IMG/VR virus record: IMGVR_UViG_3300043449_002191
Span: 64,001 to 128,000 of that record
Direction: 5' to 3' (one strand)
DNA: 64,000 nt
Source: a virus
The notes under the pieces are model-generated. The model made no database searches and was not told the origin of the DNA. It was given only the letters and a program-made list of their open reading frames with translations. This document shows positions 56,467 through 64,000 of this stretch, one piece after another; within the stretch, counting starts at the first letter, position 1; every line of letters begins with the position of its first letter. The position numbers were made by a program, and so were the translations under genes.

Positions 56467-58551
56467 ATGGCTAAAGATAACGAAAAGAAACAGCCGATTT
56501 TAGCATTAGATCCAGTCTCATATAATATGCTCAAAAAACAAGAGCAAGATGAGATTGAATCTGCTAGTGCAAAAACAGAAAAAACTGAAGCTCAAGAAAA
56601 GTCAGTTCTCGGCATGATTCTAAAGTCACTTCAAAGTCAAGCTGCCCAACAAGTCGATAGGATGGCCTTTGAGGTTGATCCATTAAATCATAATACTAAT
56701 ACAGCAAACTTTTATAAAGTAAAAACTAATCTTACCCCAGATCACGTCATTAAAAAGCTTATTGGTCCAAGTGGGGATGAATTAGTTTCACAAATTCTAC
56801 AAGCAAGAGCAAACCACATCTCCGCTTTTGGTAGACCTAGAACGGATAGATTTTCTACAGGCTTTGATTTTGTCGATATGGATAAAAATGCCATTAGGAC
56901 AGAAGAAGAGCAAAAAGCTTTACAGGAAAGAGTAGAAAAAGCCAGAGCATTTCTTTGGAAATGCGGCTTAGAAAAACTTGATACTGAAGCTGATCAGCCT
57001 AATTTAAGTCAAATACTCAAACAAGTTGTCAGAGATGGTATTGCTTACGGAAGGCTCGCAGTAGAACATTTATACGGAGCAGACCCTAAAACTGGTAAAA
57101 AAGTTTATTACGGCTTTAGACCTGTTGACGCCGGAACTGTCTATAAGATTTTACCTAAACGTGAACAAGACCAGACTTTAAGGGCTCAAGCCGTATCTAT
57201 TTTAGCTGGTCTTAAAAACGAAAAAATCAGCGTAGAAAAATACAAAAAAGACGAATACAGATACGTTCAAGTTATTGACGGTAAACCTGTCCAAGCATTT
57301 GCAGAAGAAGAACTTTCGCTATACAATCTTTATCCTGTCACAAACGTAGAATACAATGGCTATCCGCTAACTCCAATTGACCAAGCTTTAAATGCAATCA
57401 TGACTCACATCAATATTGCAATGCACAATAAGCTGTACTTCCAAAACGGAAGAGCAGCCAAAGGGATGCTTATTTTTAAATCTGACAGTATAGATGAGTC
57501 AACTGTACAGAAGATTAGACTTCAATTCCATCAGTCAATTAACTCAGTTCAGAATTCCTGGAGAATGCCAGTATTTGCAGTTGGTGCAGAAGATGACGTA
57601 CAATTTTCTTCAATAGATACTCAAGGTCGTGACGCAGAGTTTCAATATTTAATGGATAACAATGCCAGGGTAATCCTTTCGTCTTTCCAAATGTCCCCAG
57701 AAGAATTACCTGGGTATGCTCACCTTGCAAGAGGTACTAACACACAGGCTCTTTCAGAATCTGATAATGAATGGAAGCTTACTGCAGCCCGTGATGTAGG
57801 TTTACGTCCACTAGTTCTTGATATTCAAGATTTCTTAAATAATCATATTTTACCTAAAATTGATGCAGAGTTAGCTAAAACCCACCAAATTGTTTTGGCT
57901 GGATTAGAAAAAGATAGTCCAGAAAAAGAAGCTACTAGATTGCAGCAAGATATGCCTATTCATATGACCTACAATGAGGTCTTGGAATACGTAGAAAAGA
58001 ATTTGTTAGACAAGTCAGTTGGTGGAGACTTCCCATTAAACCCACAGTACCAAGCTATTATCAGTCAATATCTTACAGTAGGTCAAATATTAGAAAGCTT
58101 TTTTGGCGTTAAAGACGCATCTAAAGACCCACGTTATCAGTACGTAAGAGACCCTTTCTGGTTCCAAAACCAGCAAATTTTATTACAAAAAGCTCAAGTT
58201 GCTATGCAGCAACAAATGATGGTTGAGCAACAAATGCAACAACAAATGATGGCACAACAACAAGCTGCTATGGGCCAAGATCCTAATGCTCCACAAGAAG
58301 GCCAAGATCAATCTTTACCACCACAACAAGGTTCAAATCCACAAGATAATATGCAGAAAAATTCTGAATGGGCTATAGCAAATTATCAAGTAATGGAAAA
58401 GGCTATTAAAAACAACCACAATTCCATTTCAAAAATGCTCCTAAATAGACATTCGCAAATGGTAGATAAGCATTTATCTAAATGGTCCGAAGACTCCAAA
58501 AAAGCCCTAAAAGAGCTAGAAAAGGTCTTAAAAGATAAGAAAGAGGACTAA
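56467..58551 (+). CDS. Portal protein
   Basis: FRPVDAGTV, GYPLTPIDQA, YFQNGRAAKGML, FQMSPEEL, GLRPL; Q/M-rich tail. Confidence 0.9.
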   Translation: MAKDNEKKQPILALDPVSYNMLKKQEQDEIESASAKTEKTEAQEKSVLGMILKSLQSQAAQQVDRMAFEVDPLNHNTNTANFYKVKTNLTPDHVIKKLIGPSGDELVSQILQARANHISAFGRPRTDRFSTGFDFVDMDKNAIRTEEEQKALQERVEKARAFLWKCGLEKLDTEADQPNLSQILKQVVRDGIAYGRLAVEHLYGADPKTGKKVYYGFRPVDAGTVYKILPKREQDQTLRAQAVSILAGLKNEKISVEKYKKDEYRYVQVIDGKPVQAFAEEELSLYNLYPVTNVEYNGYPLTPIDQALNAIMTHINIAMHNKLYFQNGRAAKGMLIFKSDSIDESTVQKIRLQFHQSINSVQNSWRMPVFAVGAEDDVQFSSIDTQGRDAEFQYLMDNNARVILSSFQMSPEELPGYAHLARGTNTQALSESDNEWKLTAARDVGLRPLVLDIQDFLNNHILPKIDAELAKTHQIVLAGLEKDSPEKEATRLQQDMPIHMTYNEVLEYVEKNLLDKSVGGDFPLNPQYQAIISQYLTVGQILESFFGVKDASKDPRYQYVRDPFWFQNQQILLQKAQVAMQQQMMVEQQMQQQMMAQQQAAMGQDPNAPQEGQDQSLPPQQGSNPQDNMQKNSEWAIANYQVMEKAIKNNHNSISKMLLNRHSQMVDKHLSKWSEDSKKALKELEKVLKDKKED

Positions 58552-59439
58552 ATGCAGCTCTCTCTTTTTCAAAGACAGCTAATAATGAATAAGGTCGATG
58601 AGCTATTTGATTCAGCAAAAGCTCGTTTACAAGGACGTTTTTTCAAAGGTCCAGCAATATACTTTGAAGTAATTAATGCAACTCACCCTGAAGAAACTAT
58701 TGAAGGCATATATACCCACGCCCTTAAAACTATGTTTGGACCAACTGCCACTACTTCCTCCGAAAGATCAATAGAACACCTTTCTGAAATAGCTGGAAAT
58801 TACATTGACGCTCAAAAAATGAAAGTTAAAAATTATGTAATTGCAGATGTTTTAAACGCTAAAACCGCAAGCGAGGCATATAAAGCTGTATCTGACAATT
58901 TAGGTAAAGCCCAGAAGTACATGGAAATGCTTGTTGCTAATGAAACCAAGCTGATACAGTCTTACGCCTCAAAAGAAGGTGTTTCTCGCATTGCTGCAGA
59001 TATGAAAGACGATAACCCTACTATAGTCTGGTTTGGGCCAGTAGATAATAAAACTTGTAAGCATTGCAAAGAAATGTATCATGACGATGCTATGCCACTT
59101 AAACCAAAACCTTGGAAAATGTCACAATTAAGGGACGGATACTTTAAACCAAAAGAATGGGACAGAGCTTCTGTTTTCCATAATGCTCACCCTAGATGCA
59201 GACACGCTATGAGTTATGTACCTAAAAATATGGGGTTTAATGATAGAGGGCAGATTGAGTTTAAGCATTTTGGATACGACTATTACCAGGATTATTATTC
59301 TACACAAAAAAGTCAACCAGAATATGGCGAACCATTAAAAAAAGAGCTAGACCTTAGTCAATTCTTTATGGATTATGACGAATATATTGAATATCAGATT
59401 CAGCATGAAAAGGCTCATCACAAAAACTCCAAACCCTAA
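58552..59439 (+). CDS. Head morphogenesis protein (SPP1 gp7/MuF-like)
   Basis: ANET, DNKTCKHC, HPRCRH; follows portal. Confidence 0.8.
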   Translation: MQLSLFQRQLIMNKVDELFDSAKARLQGRFFKGPAIYFEVINATHPEETIEGIYTHALKTMFGPTATTSSERSIEHLSEIAGNYIDAQKMKVKNYVIADVLNAKTASEAYKAVSDNLGKAQKYMEMLVANETKLIQSYASKEGVSRIAADMKDDNPTIVWFGPVDNKTCKHCKEMYHDDAMPLKPKPWKMSQLRDGYFKPKEWDRASVFHNAHPRCRHAMSYVPKNMGFNDRGQIEFKHFGYDYYQDYYSTQKSQPEYGEPLKKELDLSQFFMDYDEYIEYQIQHEKAHHKNSKP

Positions 59440-59466: not shown

Positions 59467-61173
59467 ATGTCACTGAAAATCGATGGTATTGCCGCATCAT
59501 CTGCTTTAGATAGTTCTGGTGAAATACTGGAAATAGAAGGCTTAGATATCTCCGATTTTATCGAAGGTCGTGGTGTACTTAACTGGGAGCATGATAATAA
59601 GCATGAAAATACAGTTGGTGCCATAGTCTATGCTAAAAAGATTTTACAAAAATCTGACTGCGAAAATGATCGTCAACGTAGGTATTGGGACTCAGTAAAA
59701 AAGCCTTTTGTGTATATAATCGGCGAACTTTTTGATGACGAAGATCATCCAGGCGCAATTGCTATTGCAGCTATGATCAGATATTATTCTAAAAAATCAG
59801 AAAAAATGCTAGTTGGCTTTTCAATTGAAGGTTCTACTCTAGAACGTGATGGCAATATGCTTAAACAGGCTATTGCTAGGCGCTGCGCTATTACCATTAA
59901 ACCTGCCAATAAAACTGCTATTGCCGACATCTATGAAGATGAAAAAGTCAAAAAGCTTATGAATGACATGGAAAAATCCCAATCAGACGTACAGCTATTT
60001 GAAGTAGACTCTTTTACATTAGAAGATAAAGAAGTTCCATATTCCCCATACATGGAAATCCATAAGGCTATTGAAGATCTAAACAAAACATTGACTGCAG
60101 GCATGGGTAATGTAGCTCCAAGCCAGTTAGTAGGTGGAGCAGCTTTAGTTCGTGAGCAATTAAGCGGAACTCAAAAAAATAAGGTAAAAGCCGCCCTAAG
60201 AGACTGGGATAAAAGAACGCCCTTAAAACAAGTAATTAAAAATGTATTGCCAGAAATTGGCGATAAATATGTAGAACATTTTACTGATTTAGCCGAAGAC
60301 TTGATGCTTAAAAAATCTATGCAAAATCCAGCAGTTAGATTATCATCTAAGCATGGGCATACTCCTCTCCATCCAGAGCAAAACGAATTAATTGAAGGTC
60401 TTCAAGTTACACAAGACTTAGATAAAATGCCAGTATTTAAACCAAAACACGACCTTTACGGTTCCGCTATATATAAAGGTAAAAACGACAAAGGTCAAAC
60501 AGTTTTAATTAAAAGCCCAGAAAAAGATAAACCAGAAGACTTACACAACTTTGCTCAAAAAGCTTCTATGTACCATGGAATAGCAAAAAGCGTTTTTGGT
60601 CTTGGCGACAATGTGCCTGAAACAGCAGCATTTAAACATGAAAGCTTAAAAAACTCAAATAAACATCATGGAGATTGGTTCCAAGCTATTGAGCATAAAA
60701 AGGACACTAAGACTCCATTGGAAGACCAAAAAGGGTATAACGCCGTTATTGCTACACCTGAAGGTCAAGATAAGCTTTCAAAGCTATTGATAATGGACCA
60801 TATTTTAGGTGGTAGAGATAGACACGCCGGAAATATTTTATTTGATAAAAAAGGCGAGCTGCACCTTATCGATAATGATAGATCTTTTGATCATTACGAC
60901 TCAGACTTTTTACCTTCAGAAACACACGAAGAAATAATGCCTGAAAATGGATTTTTAATTTCCGATGATACCGCAAATTGGATTAAAAAAGTTGACCCAA
61001 AAATTTTACTTAAGACTATGCTAGACCATGGTATACACCATGATACCGCAAAAAAATCCATTTTGAAGCTAAAAGCTTATCAAAAAATGGCAAAAAAGGG
61101 ATATAATATTAAAGATTTAATAGATAAAGCTCATATGTCTGTGAGTGCTGCACCCAAGGAAAAGGTTAAGTAA
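59467..61173 (+). CDS. Prohead protease fused to a C-terminal PI3K/PI4K/HipA-like kinase domain
   Basis: N-term IDGIAAS..LDSSGE, LNWEH, GFSIEG; C-term VLIK, FGL..VPET, MDHILGGRDRHAGNIL, LIDNDRSF. Confidence 0.85.
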   Translation: MSLKIDGIAASSALDSSGEILEIEGLDISDFIEGRGVLNWEHDNKHENTVGAIVYAKKILQKSDCENDRQRRYWDSVKKPFVYIIGELFDDEDHPGAIAIAAMIRYYSKKSEKMLVGFSIEGSTLERDGNMLKQAIARRCAITIKPANKTAIADIYEDEKVKKLMNDMEKSQSDVQLFEVDSFTLEDKEVPYSPYMEIHKAIEDLNKTLTAGMGNVAPSQLVGGAALVREQLSGTQKNKVKAALRDWDKRTPLKQVIKNVLPEIGDKYVEHFTDLAEDLMLKKSMQNPAVRLSSKHGHTPLHPEQNELIEGLQVTQDLDKMPVFKPKHDLYGSAIYKGKNDKGQTVLIKSPEKDKPEDLHNFAQKASMYHGIAKSVFGLGDNVPETAAFKHESLKNSNKHHGDWFQAIEHKKDTKTPLEDQKGYNAVIATPEGQDKLSKLLIMDHILGGRDRHAGNILFDKKGELHLIDNDRSFDHYDSDFLPSETHEEIMPENGFLISDDTANWIKKVDPKILLKTMLDHGIHHDTAKKSILKLKAYQKMAKKGYNIKDLIDKAHMSVSAAPKEKVK

Positions 61174-61778
61174 TGAAAGTCTATGTCATTAAAAGCGTAA
61201 ACTCAGACATCCCCTTGGCTGAAATCAGAACTGATGGCAGATCTGTTGATTTTATTGTAGATAATACTGAAGGCCAACTTCCATCAAAAGTGGGCAATAG
61301 CCTAGAAGCGCTTAAAAAATACCTAAAGTCTTCTAGTATCTACTTAGAAGAACCAACTCAGCCTACAGCACATTTAATCAGATACGTTCTATCAAACGGA
61401 GATGTTGCTGAAATCACTACTGACGGTAAAACCTGCCTTTTAAATGGTAACCTGCTAACTGAGCAAGAAAAATATGCTCTATTTGATGCTATTAAAAGAA
61501 AAGAAATTCAAGTATCTAGAAAATCTGATGATATACAACCAGTTTTACCTAAAGCGCAAAAGCCTTTAGAGGAAATTAAGCCAAAACAACTGCACCCTAC
61601 TATTCAATCTCAAATGAAAGAATACTTTGAAGAAAAAAGAAAGCAATTGGAAAAATCAACACCAGATATGGATCATGAGATTGAAGATTCTGTGGCTAAG
61701 ATGGCCGGAGACAGACAAGAAGTAGGCTTTGTAAGGGACCTTTTGTATTGGTTAAAGCACGGAGGCAATCGTGAATAA
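61173..61778 (+). CDS. Hypothetical head-region protein
   Basis: Coupled ORF; internal EI(R/T)TDG(R/K) duplication. Confidence 0.7.
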   Translation: MKVYVIKSVNSDIPLAEIRTDGRSVDFIVDNTEGQLPSKVGNSLEALKKYLKSSSIYLEEPTQPTAHLIRYVLSNGDVAEITTDGKTCLLNGNLLTEQEKYALFDAIKRKEIQVSRKSDDIQPVLPKAQKPLEEIKPKQLHPTIQSQMKEYFEEKRKQLEKSTPDMDHEIEDSVAKMAGDRQEVGFVRDLLYWLKHGGNRE

Positions 61779-64000
61779 GACTTTTTTTGACGAAAACACC
61801 TCTCCACAAGAGCTTGAATCTACAATAAATCAATATATTGATACACCAAAAGATAGTCACCCAGAAGACTTATCAGAAAAGGTATATGAAGCTGCCGCAC
61901 ATCCTCAAATGCCAGCAGCGCATTTATCTAAACTTTACCTTCATAACATGGCAAAACCAGAAAATACTCCAGAAAATATAGGCAGCCATGAAAGTATAGA
62001 CTCAGATTTAACTGAAAAAATACTGCAAAATCTAAATACACCTAAAGATATACATGAGCAGCACCTTGCAGCTACTCATTCTTCTAATAGCGAGCATCAT
62101 AACTATGCTATTTCAAATCCTGCAGTATCTAATGATGTTATTCAGTCATTTTTAGAAAATAGAGCAAAATCGGAATCTGCTTGGAATATGCCAGCAGAAG
62201 AAAATGTCCATCCCGATGTTGGGTTTAATCTATTTAATAAAGGCCGTGAACTTAAAGACATTGATCCAAAGCATTCAGAAGCACTTAAAGAATATGGATT
62301 AGATATTCTACAAAATTCTAAAAAACATACAGACGAAACATTAAAGAGAGTAGTAGATGCTTATCATAAAGGCCAGCCATTAAATAGCGGCTTTTTGGGC
62401 AATCTTATCTCAAAAAATAAAAATTTGACAAAAGACCAGTTAAATCAAATTCACAATAAGCATACATCATCTGAAGAGTTTGATCCTGATTATGGTAGCA
62501 GTGTTATTTCTTCTATAGCAGAGCATCCTAATACTGATCCATCATTACTATCACTAATCGCTAACGATAAAAAGTATAAAAACCATGCATCTGATGCTTT
62601 AAAAAATCCTGCGCTTCCTATGGAAGTATTCAATAATAAAATTTCAAAATTACCTAAAAGAGGAAATGAACATTACGATCATAATGATGAAATTACTGAA
62701 TCTTTACTGCAAAATCCAAATATAACAAAAGACCAAGTGTCAGAACTTTTTAAAAAAGGGTTTAAATCAGCGTTAAATCATGAAAAAACTGATGAGTCAT
62801 TAATTGAAAATCATTGGAATAGCTCTGACAAAAGCGCAGATGCTGCGAATAAAATTTTGCGAACAAAAAACTTGCCTGAAAGTGTCTTAAAAGAGCTTGT
62901 TAATCATAAAAATCAAGACGTAGCAATTGAAGCGTTAAATCATAAGAATGCTACAGAAAACGTAGTAAATGAAGGTTTAAAAAGAAAAGCTAAAGCAGTA
63001 CAAGAAGAGGCAGCTAAGCACCCTCTTGTAAAAGATAGAGCTATTACTGAAAAGCTAAAAAATAAATCAGTAAACGCCTCTACTATAGCTTCTGATAATG
63101 ATTATAAAGAAAAGTTTGATAAACTTTCCGATTTGGATAAATCTAATCTAATTAACCACTTCCATGAAAAGCTCTCAGGCTCAGACATTGATGCAATTGC
63201 TAAGAATTCAAAAGAAAAGAAGTCTGATGTATTATTGGCAAAAAGATTCTTAGCTAGGGATAAAAGTGTACCACAACACATCAAAGACCATCATTCAGAT
63301 GAGTTTTTTGATATGTTTACTAAAGAATTTGGAACTAATTCAGATATAAACGTAGATAGAGATGATTTACACAAAAGGCAGTTATTCCAAACCGCAAGAG
63401 ACCTTTTATCAGATGAAAATCCAACAGCGCAGAAAAGATTGCTAGAGCATACACCTTTGATGTCAGCGTTAGGCCCTGATGTGGCATCTAAATCTAAAAA
63501 TCCTGATTTTATTAAAAAGCTAGTCAAAAGAGCTAAAGACGCTGATGGTGAATCAATAATAGATCGCTGGGGGCACCCAAGACCATATAATTCGTCTGAC
63601 TTAAGATTATCTGTATTAAAAAATCCAAATCTAAGCCTAGAAGATCTTAAAGGTCACTTGTCCGACCCGTCTTTTAATGATTTTGATAAATATGCTTTGA
63701 ATAATATTATGGATAAAACAAAAGGTTCCCCAGAAAAACAAGCAGAAACACTAAGTTTTTTAAAAAATTTAAACAGACCAGAAGTAAACAAACACCTGCT
63801 GTTAGGCAGTTTTTTGACTGGAAATGACCAAGAATCAGCATTTGAAAACTTAGAGTCAAAATACGATAAAAGTGAATTTTTAAAGGAAAATGCAGACAAA
63901 ATTTCTCCATCGTTAGCTGACAGAATTTTAAGTGGCGAATTTAATGATAATTACACACAAATGAAACATAATCTTTTTAGTGGATTAGAAAATCCCCCTA
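61771..64000 (+). CDS. Large helical-repeat (HEAT/LRV-like) protein, 3'-truncated, >740 aa
   Basis: GGAGG SD, GTG start; frame open wherever spot-checked; recurring AAHPQMP, IAEHPNTD, ALKNPALP, LLQNPNIT, VLKNPNLS. Confidence 0.8.
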   Translation, partial: MNKTFFDENTSPQELESTINQYIDTPKDSHPEDLSEKVYEAAAHPQMPAAHLSKLYLHNMAKPENTPENIGSHESIDSDLTEKILQNLNTPKDIHEQHLAATHSSNSEHHNYAISNPAVSNDVIQSFLENRAKSESAWNMPAEENVHPDVGFNLFNKGRELKDIDPKHSEALKEYGLDILQNSKKHTDETLKRVVDAYHKGQPLNSGFLGNLISKNKNLTKDQLNQIHNKHTSSEEFDPDYGSSVISSIAEHPNTDPSLLSLIANDKKYKNHASDALKNPALPMEVFNNKISKLPKRGNEHYDHNDEITESLLQNPNITKDQVSELFKKGFKSALNHEKTDESLIENHWNSSDKSADAANKILRTKNLPESVLKELVNHKNQDVAIEALNHKNATENVVNEGLKRKAKAVQEEAAKHPLVKDRAITEKLKNKSVNASTIASDNDYKEKFDKLSDLDKSNLINHFHEKLSGSDIDAIAKNSKEKKSDVLLAKRFLARDKSVPQHIKDHHSDEFFDMFTKEFGTNSDINVDRDDLHKRQLFQTARDLLSDENPTAQKRLLEHTPLMSALGPDVASKSKNPDFIKKLVKRAKDADGESIIDRWGHPRPYNSSDLRLSVLKNPNLSLEDLKGHLSDPSFNDFDKYALNNIMDKTKGSPEKQAETLSFLKNLNRPEVNKHLLLGSFLTGNDQESAFENLESKYDKSEFLKENADKISPSLADRILSGEFNDNYTQMKHNLFSGLENPP

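Follow-up and report, generated by a model that had tools for sequence, protein, structure and literature searches.

A prohead protease-kinase polyprotein in the head gene module of an Mx1-like phage, and its candidate role in carrying an enzyme into the capsid

What purpose might be served when a tailed phage joins the protease that matures its capsid to a complete kinase within one open reading frame (ORF)? The question is raised by a gene located in a 64,000-nucleotide stretch of viral DNA (hereafter the window), corresponding to bases 64001-128000 of IMG/VR record IMGVR_UViG_3300043449_002191, a single contig of 157,341 bp. The source genome is that of a large, uncultured tailed phage, Mx1-like: its major capsid protein (MCP), encoded beyond the window at genome positions 133932-135320, is 54.5% identical to the MCP of Myxococcus phage Mx1, although the host of Mx1 is a myxobacterium of high guanine plus cytosine (GC) content whereas the genome considered here has a GC content of ~36%. 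On balance the evidence favours reading the product of the gene as a self-processing head polyprotein by which an enzyme is brought into the prohead. Loading of the kinase into the phage head is probable, and its later delivery in the virion is possible. The gene itself is as follows.

59467..61173, + strand: gene for the protease-mid-kinase polyprotein (P0001), 568 amino acids (aa) plus stop, with an ATG start

The extent, strand, length and start codon given for this ORF by a first-pass annotation made from the sequence alone were all confirmed. Three parts could be distinguished in the product, namely a protease (aa 1-160), a 'mid' segment (aa 197-283) and a kinase (aa 293-568), and a word-indexed search recovered ~100 full-length relatives with identities of 33-76% on contigs of up to 175 kb.

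An assembly or frameshift artefact joining two separate genes would account for such a chain in a quite different manner, and it was as a possible artefact that the fusion had been flagged for checking. Architectures were sorted using home-made hidden Markov models (HMMs) for the protease, mid and kinase parts, and all three were present in 148 of the 256 proteins collected, a further eight of which carried inserts; the same architecture was found at 28 of the 80 IMG/VR loci. More than 150 independent protein clusters drawn from JGI, ENA, Logan and NCBI contain the fusion as a single ORF, as does the cultured phage Mx1, and on the strength of this conservation the fusion is genuine, leaving the probability of an artefact negligible. 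Nothing was found in favour of the latter explanation beyond the existence of a few protease-less 'mid + kinase' proteins, which might have been taken for natural split forms, but the one that was checked starts 22 nucleotides (nt) from a contig end and so is truncated. The phage group to which these polyproteins belong has genomes of 130-175 kb, is widespread, and includes Mx1 as a cultivable member; no paper describing a protease-kinase fusion was found in the literature searched.

The features of the N-terminal part are listed below.

59467..59946, + strand: prohead serine protease domain (aa 1-160) with a gp21/assemblin fold
59590..59592, + strand: codon of His42, the predicted catalytic histidine, in the motif LNWEH
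59821..59823, + strand: codon of Ser119, the predicted catalytic serine, in the motif GFSIEG

The initial assignment of aa ~1-160 to a prohead protease was borne out by several lines of evidence. A search of PHROGs returned phrog_1028 ('head maturation protease') with an E-value of 1.7e-12 over aa 5-235, and the tblastn matches included proteins annotated as prohead proteases in Mx1 and in phages resembling SPO1, A511 and EF24C, the Herelleviridae matches having E-values of 1e-9 to 1e-4; a Pfam scan yielded no peptidase family for the protease half at E <= 0.1. An AlphaFold2 (AF2) model of aa 1-300 was built from 131 relatives, and aa 1-145 of that model superimposed on T4 gp21 (5jbl_A) with a Z score of 10.9 and a root-mean-square deviation (rmsd) of 2.2 over 118 aligned residues. 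Herpesvirus assemblins were matched by the same model, those of varicella-zoster virus (VZV) and human cytomegalovirus (HCMV) at Z 10.0 and 7.2 respectively and another at Z 6.1, while the profile of aa 1-300 searched against the PDB gave as its sole match a non-significant TAF12 histone fold (E 0.04) at aa 220-289, window positions 60124-60333. Both His42 and Ser119 were invariant in the 131 sequences, and the position of the gene between those for the portal and the scaffold and MCP is the canonical slot for a prohead protease. In the mechanism proposed here this serine protease, acting through His42 and Ser119, would be the prohead protease of the phage.

Between the protease and the kinase lies a segment related to the capsid protein itself.

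60055..60180, + strand: copy of the MCP N-terminus (aa 197-238)
60088..60315, + strand: 'mid' domain (aa 208-283), a disordered arm followed by a three-helix bundle

Comparison of polyprotein aa 197-238 with aa 3-44 of the MCP from the same phage gave 22 identical residues out of 42 (52% identity; E 2e-8), the two sequences running ...DLNK↓TLTAGMGNVAPSQLVGGAAL in the protease and ...TLVK↓TLEAGNYNVAPSQLVQGSAL in the MCP, where the arrow denotes the predicted point of cleavage. The relationship extends to other members of the group: the 'mid' HMM picked up the MCP N-terminus in 23 further loci, and in the 20 loci for which both arms could be aligned each contained a hydrophobic-x-Lys motif followed by A or T, together with an AG...APS..L..G.AL...E string. 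The sequence shared by the two proteins of Mx1 is K↓AMEAGNFNA, and that shared in the phage considered here is K↓TL(E/T)AG; since the residue following the lysine thus agrees between protease and MCP, the two arm copies co-vary within a phage. In the AF2 model of the mid domain the arm (aa 212-229) is disordered and is succeeded by helices at aa 235-245, 253-260 and 266-285, confidence falling past aa 285, and a fold search conducted with the helical bundle returned no match above Z 4.6. In plain relatives, which are 274-303 aa long, there is nothing but the protease and the mid domain, from which it follows that the latter formed the C-terminal part of the ancestral protease. The mid segment most likely serves to recruit the chain into the assembling prohead, and incorporation of the chain into the prohead by this means is considered likely.

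The C-terminal half of the chain comprises the following features.

60343..61170, + strand: type II PI4K-like kinase domain (aa 293-568)
60511..60513, + strand: K349, the ATP-binding lysine, in the motif VLIK
60817..60834, + strand: catalytic loop D451-R-H-A-G-N456
60868..60879, + strand: I468-D469-N-D471, containing the metal-binding aspartate equivalent to that of DFG

The Pfam family PI3_PI4_kinase (PF00454), which includes protein kinases as well, was matched at 28.7 bits, relative to a cut-off of 27.1, over the region of the catalytic loop only (aa 435-480). A search of the PDB with the single protein sequence gave no match; the corresponding search with a family profile recovered the catalytic loops of PI3K-alpha, mTOR and Vps34 (E 7e-5), aligning DRHxxN...ID with the GDRHNSN catalytic loop and the IDFG motif of PI3K-alpha. 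A model of aa 290-568, built from 141 relatives, had a predicted local distance difference test score (pLDDT) of 93.5 and a predicted template modelling score (pTM) of 0.92, and exhibited a two-lobed fold for which the top Foldseek match was 4hne_B (E 7e-7). The best structural match was PI4K II alpha (4pla_A), with Z 18.9 and rmsd 3.6 over 253 aligned residues at a sequence identity of 13%, and PI4K2A (PDB 4pla/4hnd) shares with the phage domain not only the fold but also the DRHxxN loop, the metal-binding IDN and the ATP-binding lysine. The next matches, at Z 11-13, were CtkA (12.9), actin-fragmin kinase, Fam20 and HipA (11.2-11.3), so that CtkA, actin-fragmin kinase and HipA lie 6-8 Z units below PI4K II. 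The prior description of the domain as HipA-like consequently has to be set aside, there being no HipA match in Pfam either: as modelled, the kinase is closest in fold to type II PI4K, not HipA. Similarly, the presence of a kinase was upheld but its suggested start at aa ~330 was not, the fold beginning at around aa 293. The positions of the motifs, including LIDND at aa 467-471, were exactly as first reported.

Residue counts taken over 92 full-length relatives demonstrated the extent to which the active site has been retained. Lysine occupied position 349 in 83 of these sequences; within the catalytic loop D was present in 78, R in 90, H in 78 and N in 84; and the metal-binding motif retained D469 in 90 and N470 in 84. 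The core catalytic set of K349, D451, N456 and D469 was complete in 76 of the 92, as it is in the protein studied here, in agreement with the earlier view that the kinase is intact, and because these residues are kept the enzyme is predicted from sequence to be probably active in most members of the family. The remaining 16 lack one to three of the four residues, and this minority of relatives appear, as judged by their sequences, to be pseudokinases.

That 16 relatives should keep the domain after such losses, when the residues of the protease are invariant, could be understood if the kinase-like domain were mainly structural or regulatory, whether as a bulky pro-domain holding the protease inactive or at a distance until assembly or as an internal component of the core, catalysis being secondary; the occupation of the chain by unrelated inserts of similar size in other clades could be viewed in the same way. 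We nevertheless regard this explanation as quite improbable, given that the presence of all four catalytic residues in 76 of the 92 sequences, and of R452 and D469 in 90, is hard to explain without enzymatic selection, and that the kinase, where replaced, gives way to a further enzyme, GGDEF, and not to arbitrary filler.

If the kinase is to be released within the head then suitable sites of cleavage should be present, and three candidates were found in the linker.

59968..59979, + strand: M168-E-K170↓S171, a possible cut site behind the protease domain
60079..60090, + strand: L205-N-K207↓T208, predicted cleavage site 1
60307..60318, + strand: L281-K-K283↓S284, predicted cleavage site 2 and domain boundary

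The several (L/M/I)xK(S/A/T) motifs noted by the first-pass annotation are present, and the last two are near-invariant in the 92 relatives. In site 1, which has the same motif as the L-V-K↓T of the MCP and matches the MCP's own L-x-K↓T/A site across 20 phages, L and K were each found in 91 sequences and T in 85. In site 2, L was found in 90 and K283 in all 92, the residue after K283 being small or polar in every case (G 47, S 25, N 14, A 4, T 2). The first of the three is semi-conserved and lies in a region of low pLDDT, relatives carrying I-A-K-[KS] some three residues before that position. Cargo-less relatives terminate 6-8 residues beyond LKK, which places the domain boundary exactly at this motif. 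Genome-wide, enrichment of L-x-K-[ST] was highest in the polyprotein (5 versus 0.6 expected), and was also recorded for the scaffold-like protein (3 versus 0.3) and for a GNAT-kinase protein of 860 aa (4 versus 0.9). The T4 prohead protease cuts after Glu and that of herpesviruses after Ala; by comparison, the cut predicted here is after Lys.

Combining these features, the protease would, once inside the prohead, cut its own L-x-K sites as in the MCP, and a cut at the second L-x-K↓small site would free a kinase of ~32 kDa, too big for the capsid pores. Carried in the virion alongside the DNA, this kinase would then reach the next host cell and there modify a protein or lipid target. The L-x-K↓T/A motif common to the MCP and the protease is indirect evidence for maturation cleavage of the capsid protein. 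Cleavage of the chain at L-x-K we hold to be fairly probable; retention of the kinase followed by its ejection is possible, at somewhat less than an even chance.

A number of results weigh against this sequence of events. L281 and K283 are kept also in relatives without cargo, that is, where there is nothing to release, and the motif may therefore serve structure or the trimming of the tail instead of the release of cargo. The enrichment of L-x-K-[ST] is modest (P 3e-4, uncorrected for 169 genes). Two ClpP-family paralogues (PF00574) are also encoded by the genome, either of which, rather than the prohead protease, might be what cuts after lysine:

genome 141635-142246 (L004:1636-2247): ClpP-family protease, E 7e-31
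genome 142807-143574 (L004:2808-3575): ClpP-family protease, E 4e-35

To these may be added the 16 relatives with depleted active sites and the existence of stand-alone members of the kinase family in replication modules, which indicate that the kinase can work unpackaged.

The latter kinases, of 407-413 aa, belong to the same family and are located in the replication and repair modules of other large phages (L086:6247-9224; L089:1199-4185), directly 3' of a gene for an SbcC/Rad50-like AAA_23 protein and near genes for an Mre11-like phosphoesterase and DNA polymerase III alpha; their N-termini include a helix with L-x-K and a linker rich in Pro and Lys. From this location it can be concluded that packaging would be a trait of the head-polyprotein lineage, not of the kinase. 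The juxtaposition of a PI3K-family kinase with Rad50 and Mre11 recalls ATM-MRN, and may be coincidence.

A second kinase-like protein is encoded by the present phage itself, 16.9 kb past the end of the window (genome 144917-147499; L004:4918-7500). This protein, of 860 aa, combines GNAT with a second PI3_PI4-kinase-like domain (27.4 bits), its N-terminal 125 aa are dense with L-x-K-[STG], and its gene adjoins that of an SLT lytic transglycosylase among virion genes. Accordingly it, too, can be regarded as candidate cargo for packaging.

These various kinases bear on an alternative explanation in which the enzyme does its work late in infection, within the producing cell or the prohead, perhaps on proteins of the host or phage as assembly proceeds or beforehand, the fusion ensuring co-expression and a fixed stoichiometry and the kinase being later degraded or trapped with no role in the next host. 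In keeping with such a role, the gene lies in the head block and is presumably late, the kinase would be made in an ATP-filled cytoplasm well before packaging, and its stand-alone relatives are ordinary intracellular phage genes beside those for SbcC/Rad50-like proteins and DNA polymerase. However, a folded domain of 32 kDa located behind a capsid-docking segment would enter the prohead anyway, the cargo of relatives (GGDEF, GNAT and phosphatase) resembles sets of packaged effectors (PMC5512222), and the virion genes beside the SLT lysin include the second GNAT-kinase protein with its L-x-K-rich N-terminus, and on these grounds purely late action is thought unlikely.

As for the self-processing polyprotein, its cargo was found to differ between relatives. 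A GGDEF cyclase takes the C-terminal place of the kinase in six IMG/VR loci (L028, L032, L037, L040, L041 and L049), all in the Mx1-like long clade, and other chains carry GNAT, His_Phos_1 (with the kinase still terminal), DUF5661 and many unassigned inserts. A FlgM-like match in L066 scored 24.1 bits, under the Pfam cut-off of 25, and is a lead only; nothing was found by Pfam in the insert of the long Mx1-like form. A quick tree of the protease domain resolved three groups, comprising the compact kinase forms (including that of this phage), a clade carrying different inserts, and the long forms, with the GGDEF forms nested among kinase forms. Cargo changes on this tree numbered five in all, of which strongly supported branches force one per label only, and with so few changes the slot is best described as variable, not hyper-polymorphic. 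The polymorphism previously suspected at the C-terminus is thus real as variation, GGDEF replacing the kinase there and GNAT, His_Phos_1 and DUF5661 occurring elsewhere in the chain, but does not amount to hyper-polymorphism. A tentative and rather doubtful extension of these data would make the Mx1-like prohead protease a general carrier re-usable through recombination, docked by its mimic of the capsid arm and, by cutting itself, leaving dozens of copies of a host-manipulating enzyme per head to be injected before expression of phage genes, with kinase, GGDEF, acetyltransferase or phosphatase as cargo.

The closest cultured comparison is the 'putative prohead protease' of Mx1 (WNM70322.1, in OR576727.2; 1239 aa), which has the same protease, with 44% identity over aa 1-286, the same copy of the capsid arm with its K↓AMEAG site, the same gene order, and the same C-terminal kinase (E 1e-7; motifs DRNDGN and HIDNA). 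It differs in that ~650 additional residues separate its mid domain from its kinase, and is annotated in its record as a protease only, the Mx1 genome announcement being silent on the fusion. The candidate sites in the Mx1 protein read FAK↓AMEAG and MKK↓S. Mx1 has in addition a separate 'nucleotide cyclase' gene two genes past its protease-kinase.

The polyprotein is best read, by analogy, as a counterpart of the herpesvirus protease-scaffold protein UL26 to which an enzyme has been appended. The N-terminal assemblin/gp21 fold is shared with both UL26 and T4 gp21 (Z 10.0-10.9), and the R and M sites of UL26 are comparable in spirit to the predicted sites that bound the capsid-docking segment here. 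Lambda C/Nu3 and P2 gpO are likewise prohead protease-scaffold polyproteins. By way of distinction, chains of the UL26 type carry scaffold only, whereas in the present case there is a complete, unrelated enzyme and a docking segment that copies the N-arm of the MCP.

In concept the arrangement is also related, again by analogy, to the capsid-targeted proteins of T4, to MuF toxins and to polyvalent proteins. T4 Alt and the internal proteins use a cleavable targeting segment for entry into the prohead, where they are trimmed by the protease, and are delivered with the DNA (PMC5512222); in SPN3US a prohead protease is reported to cut head proteins, many of which are ejected along with the DNA (PMC10052503). 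By comparison, the candidate cargo here is covalently part of the protease chain itself. The candidate segment is moreover not a targeting sequence of the T4 type: the latter is a short leader at the N-terminus, which gp21 removes at L/I-x-E, while the former is internal, ~30 aa in length, copies the capsid N-arm and has an L-x-K site. Polyvalent proteins and MuF toxins similarly combine a head-associated carrier with swappable enzymes, including kinases and GNATs (PMC5512222; PMC5576092). In their survey of polyvalent proteins Iyer et al. (2017) noted assemblin-like peptidases 'always at the C termini' (PMC5512222), as opposed to the N-terminal protease in the canonical slot described here; with respect to domain content of the polyvalent type, the present chain has the protease and one enzyme, to which relatives add GNAT, His_Phos_1 and GGDEF, and its kinase differs from those of polyvalent proteins in being PI4K-II-like with a full C-lobe. 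Nor is this a MuF polymorphic toxin, since the carrier is the protease and the MuF-like gene is a separate one upstream that has no toxin domain.

The genes flanking the polyprotein are set out below.

56467..58551, + strand: portal protein (phrog_15361, 8.9e-23)
58552..59439, + strand: MuF-like head protein of 295 aa
61173..61778, + strand: gene for a 201-aa protein, its start overlapping the stop of the polyprotein gene

The order of the head module is large terminase, a 325-aa protein, portal, the 295-aa protein, the polyprotein, the 201-aa protein and a 2068-aa protein, after which come two small proteins, an acidic scaffold-like protein and the MCP. The location of the polyprotein gene after genes for the portal and a MuF protein had been remarked upon in the first-pass annotation; the portal position was verified, and the MuF identity of the 295-aa protein is given by Atlas look-up alone (feature score of 0.95 with the PF04233 cluster; template modelling (TM) score of 0.54 to the SPP1 gp7 family), there being no match in Pfam or PHROGs. 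A late motif proper to the gene had also been proposed. No promoter-like signal above chance was found in the 27-nt upstream gap, which contains a GGAG ribosome-binding site, and the supposed motif, TTATTAAA, was rejected on the basis of its 44 occurrences on both strands with no positional preference. Counts of sigma-70-like promoters and of terminators were not above those in shuffled sequences.

The 201-aa gene lies directly 3' of the polyprotein gene in eight compact-form loci, and a ninth homologue overlaps the 3' end of the L010 gene; long forms have no such gene. A role as a kinase-specific partner or immunity protein was considered and rejected, the gene being kept in the compact clade alone and absent beside the kinases of long forms; the protein had no family match in Pfam or PHROGs, and no antitoxin-family match was obtained among neighbouring genes in Pfam and PHROGs scans. 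The 2068-aa ORF (window 61771-64000 and beyond; L002:772-6978), situated between the polyprotein gene and those of the scaffold and MCP, had no match in Pfam or PHROGs; to judge from its length and location it may encode an internal head protein. Just past the head genes, a 359-aa protein (genome 138025-139104; L002:13026-14105) combines an HNH/endonuclease VII-like region (phrog_135, 3e-39) with one resembling dUTPase (phrog_1035, 4e-20).

The protease-kinase polyprotein belongs, then, to the known theme of virion-packaged effectors and polyvalent proteins, in an arrangement with an N-terminal protease that was not found in the literature searched. Proteins that are packaged and injected can affect the host ahead of all phage gene expression, and to our knowledge few carriers for them are known, these being the capsid-targeting leaders of T4, MuF, and the internal bodies of jumbo phages. 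In this instance the role of carrier seems to fall to the capsid protease, and the copy of the capsid arm may act as an address label, suggesting a simple and testable rule for the loading of foreign proteins into capsids of this phage group. The cargo is a member of the PI3K/PI4K family from a bacterial virus, with an intact active site, and the same family is represented in the replication modules of other large phages. If the carrier interpretation is true, this would be the first virion-delivered bacteriophage kinase, possibly one directed at lipids, and were its delivery to be confirmed, phosphorylation would join the repertoire by which phages take over the host before expressing genes of their own.

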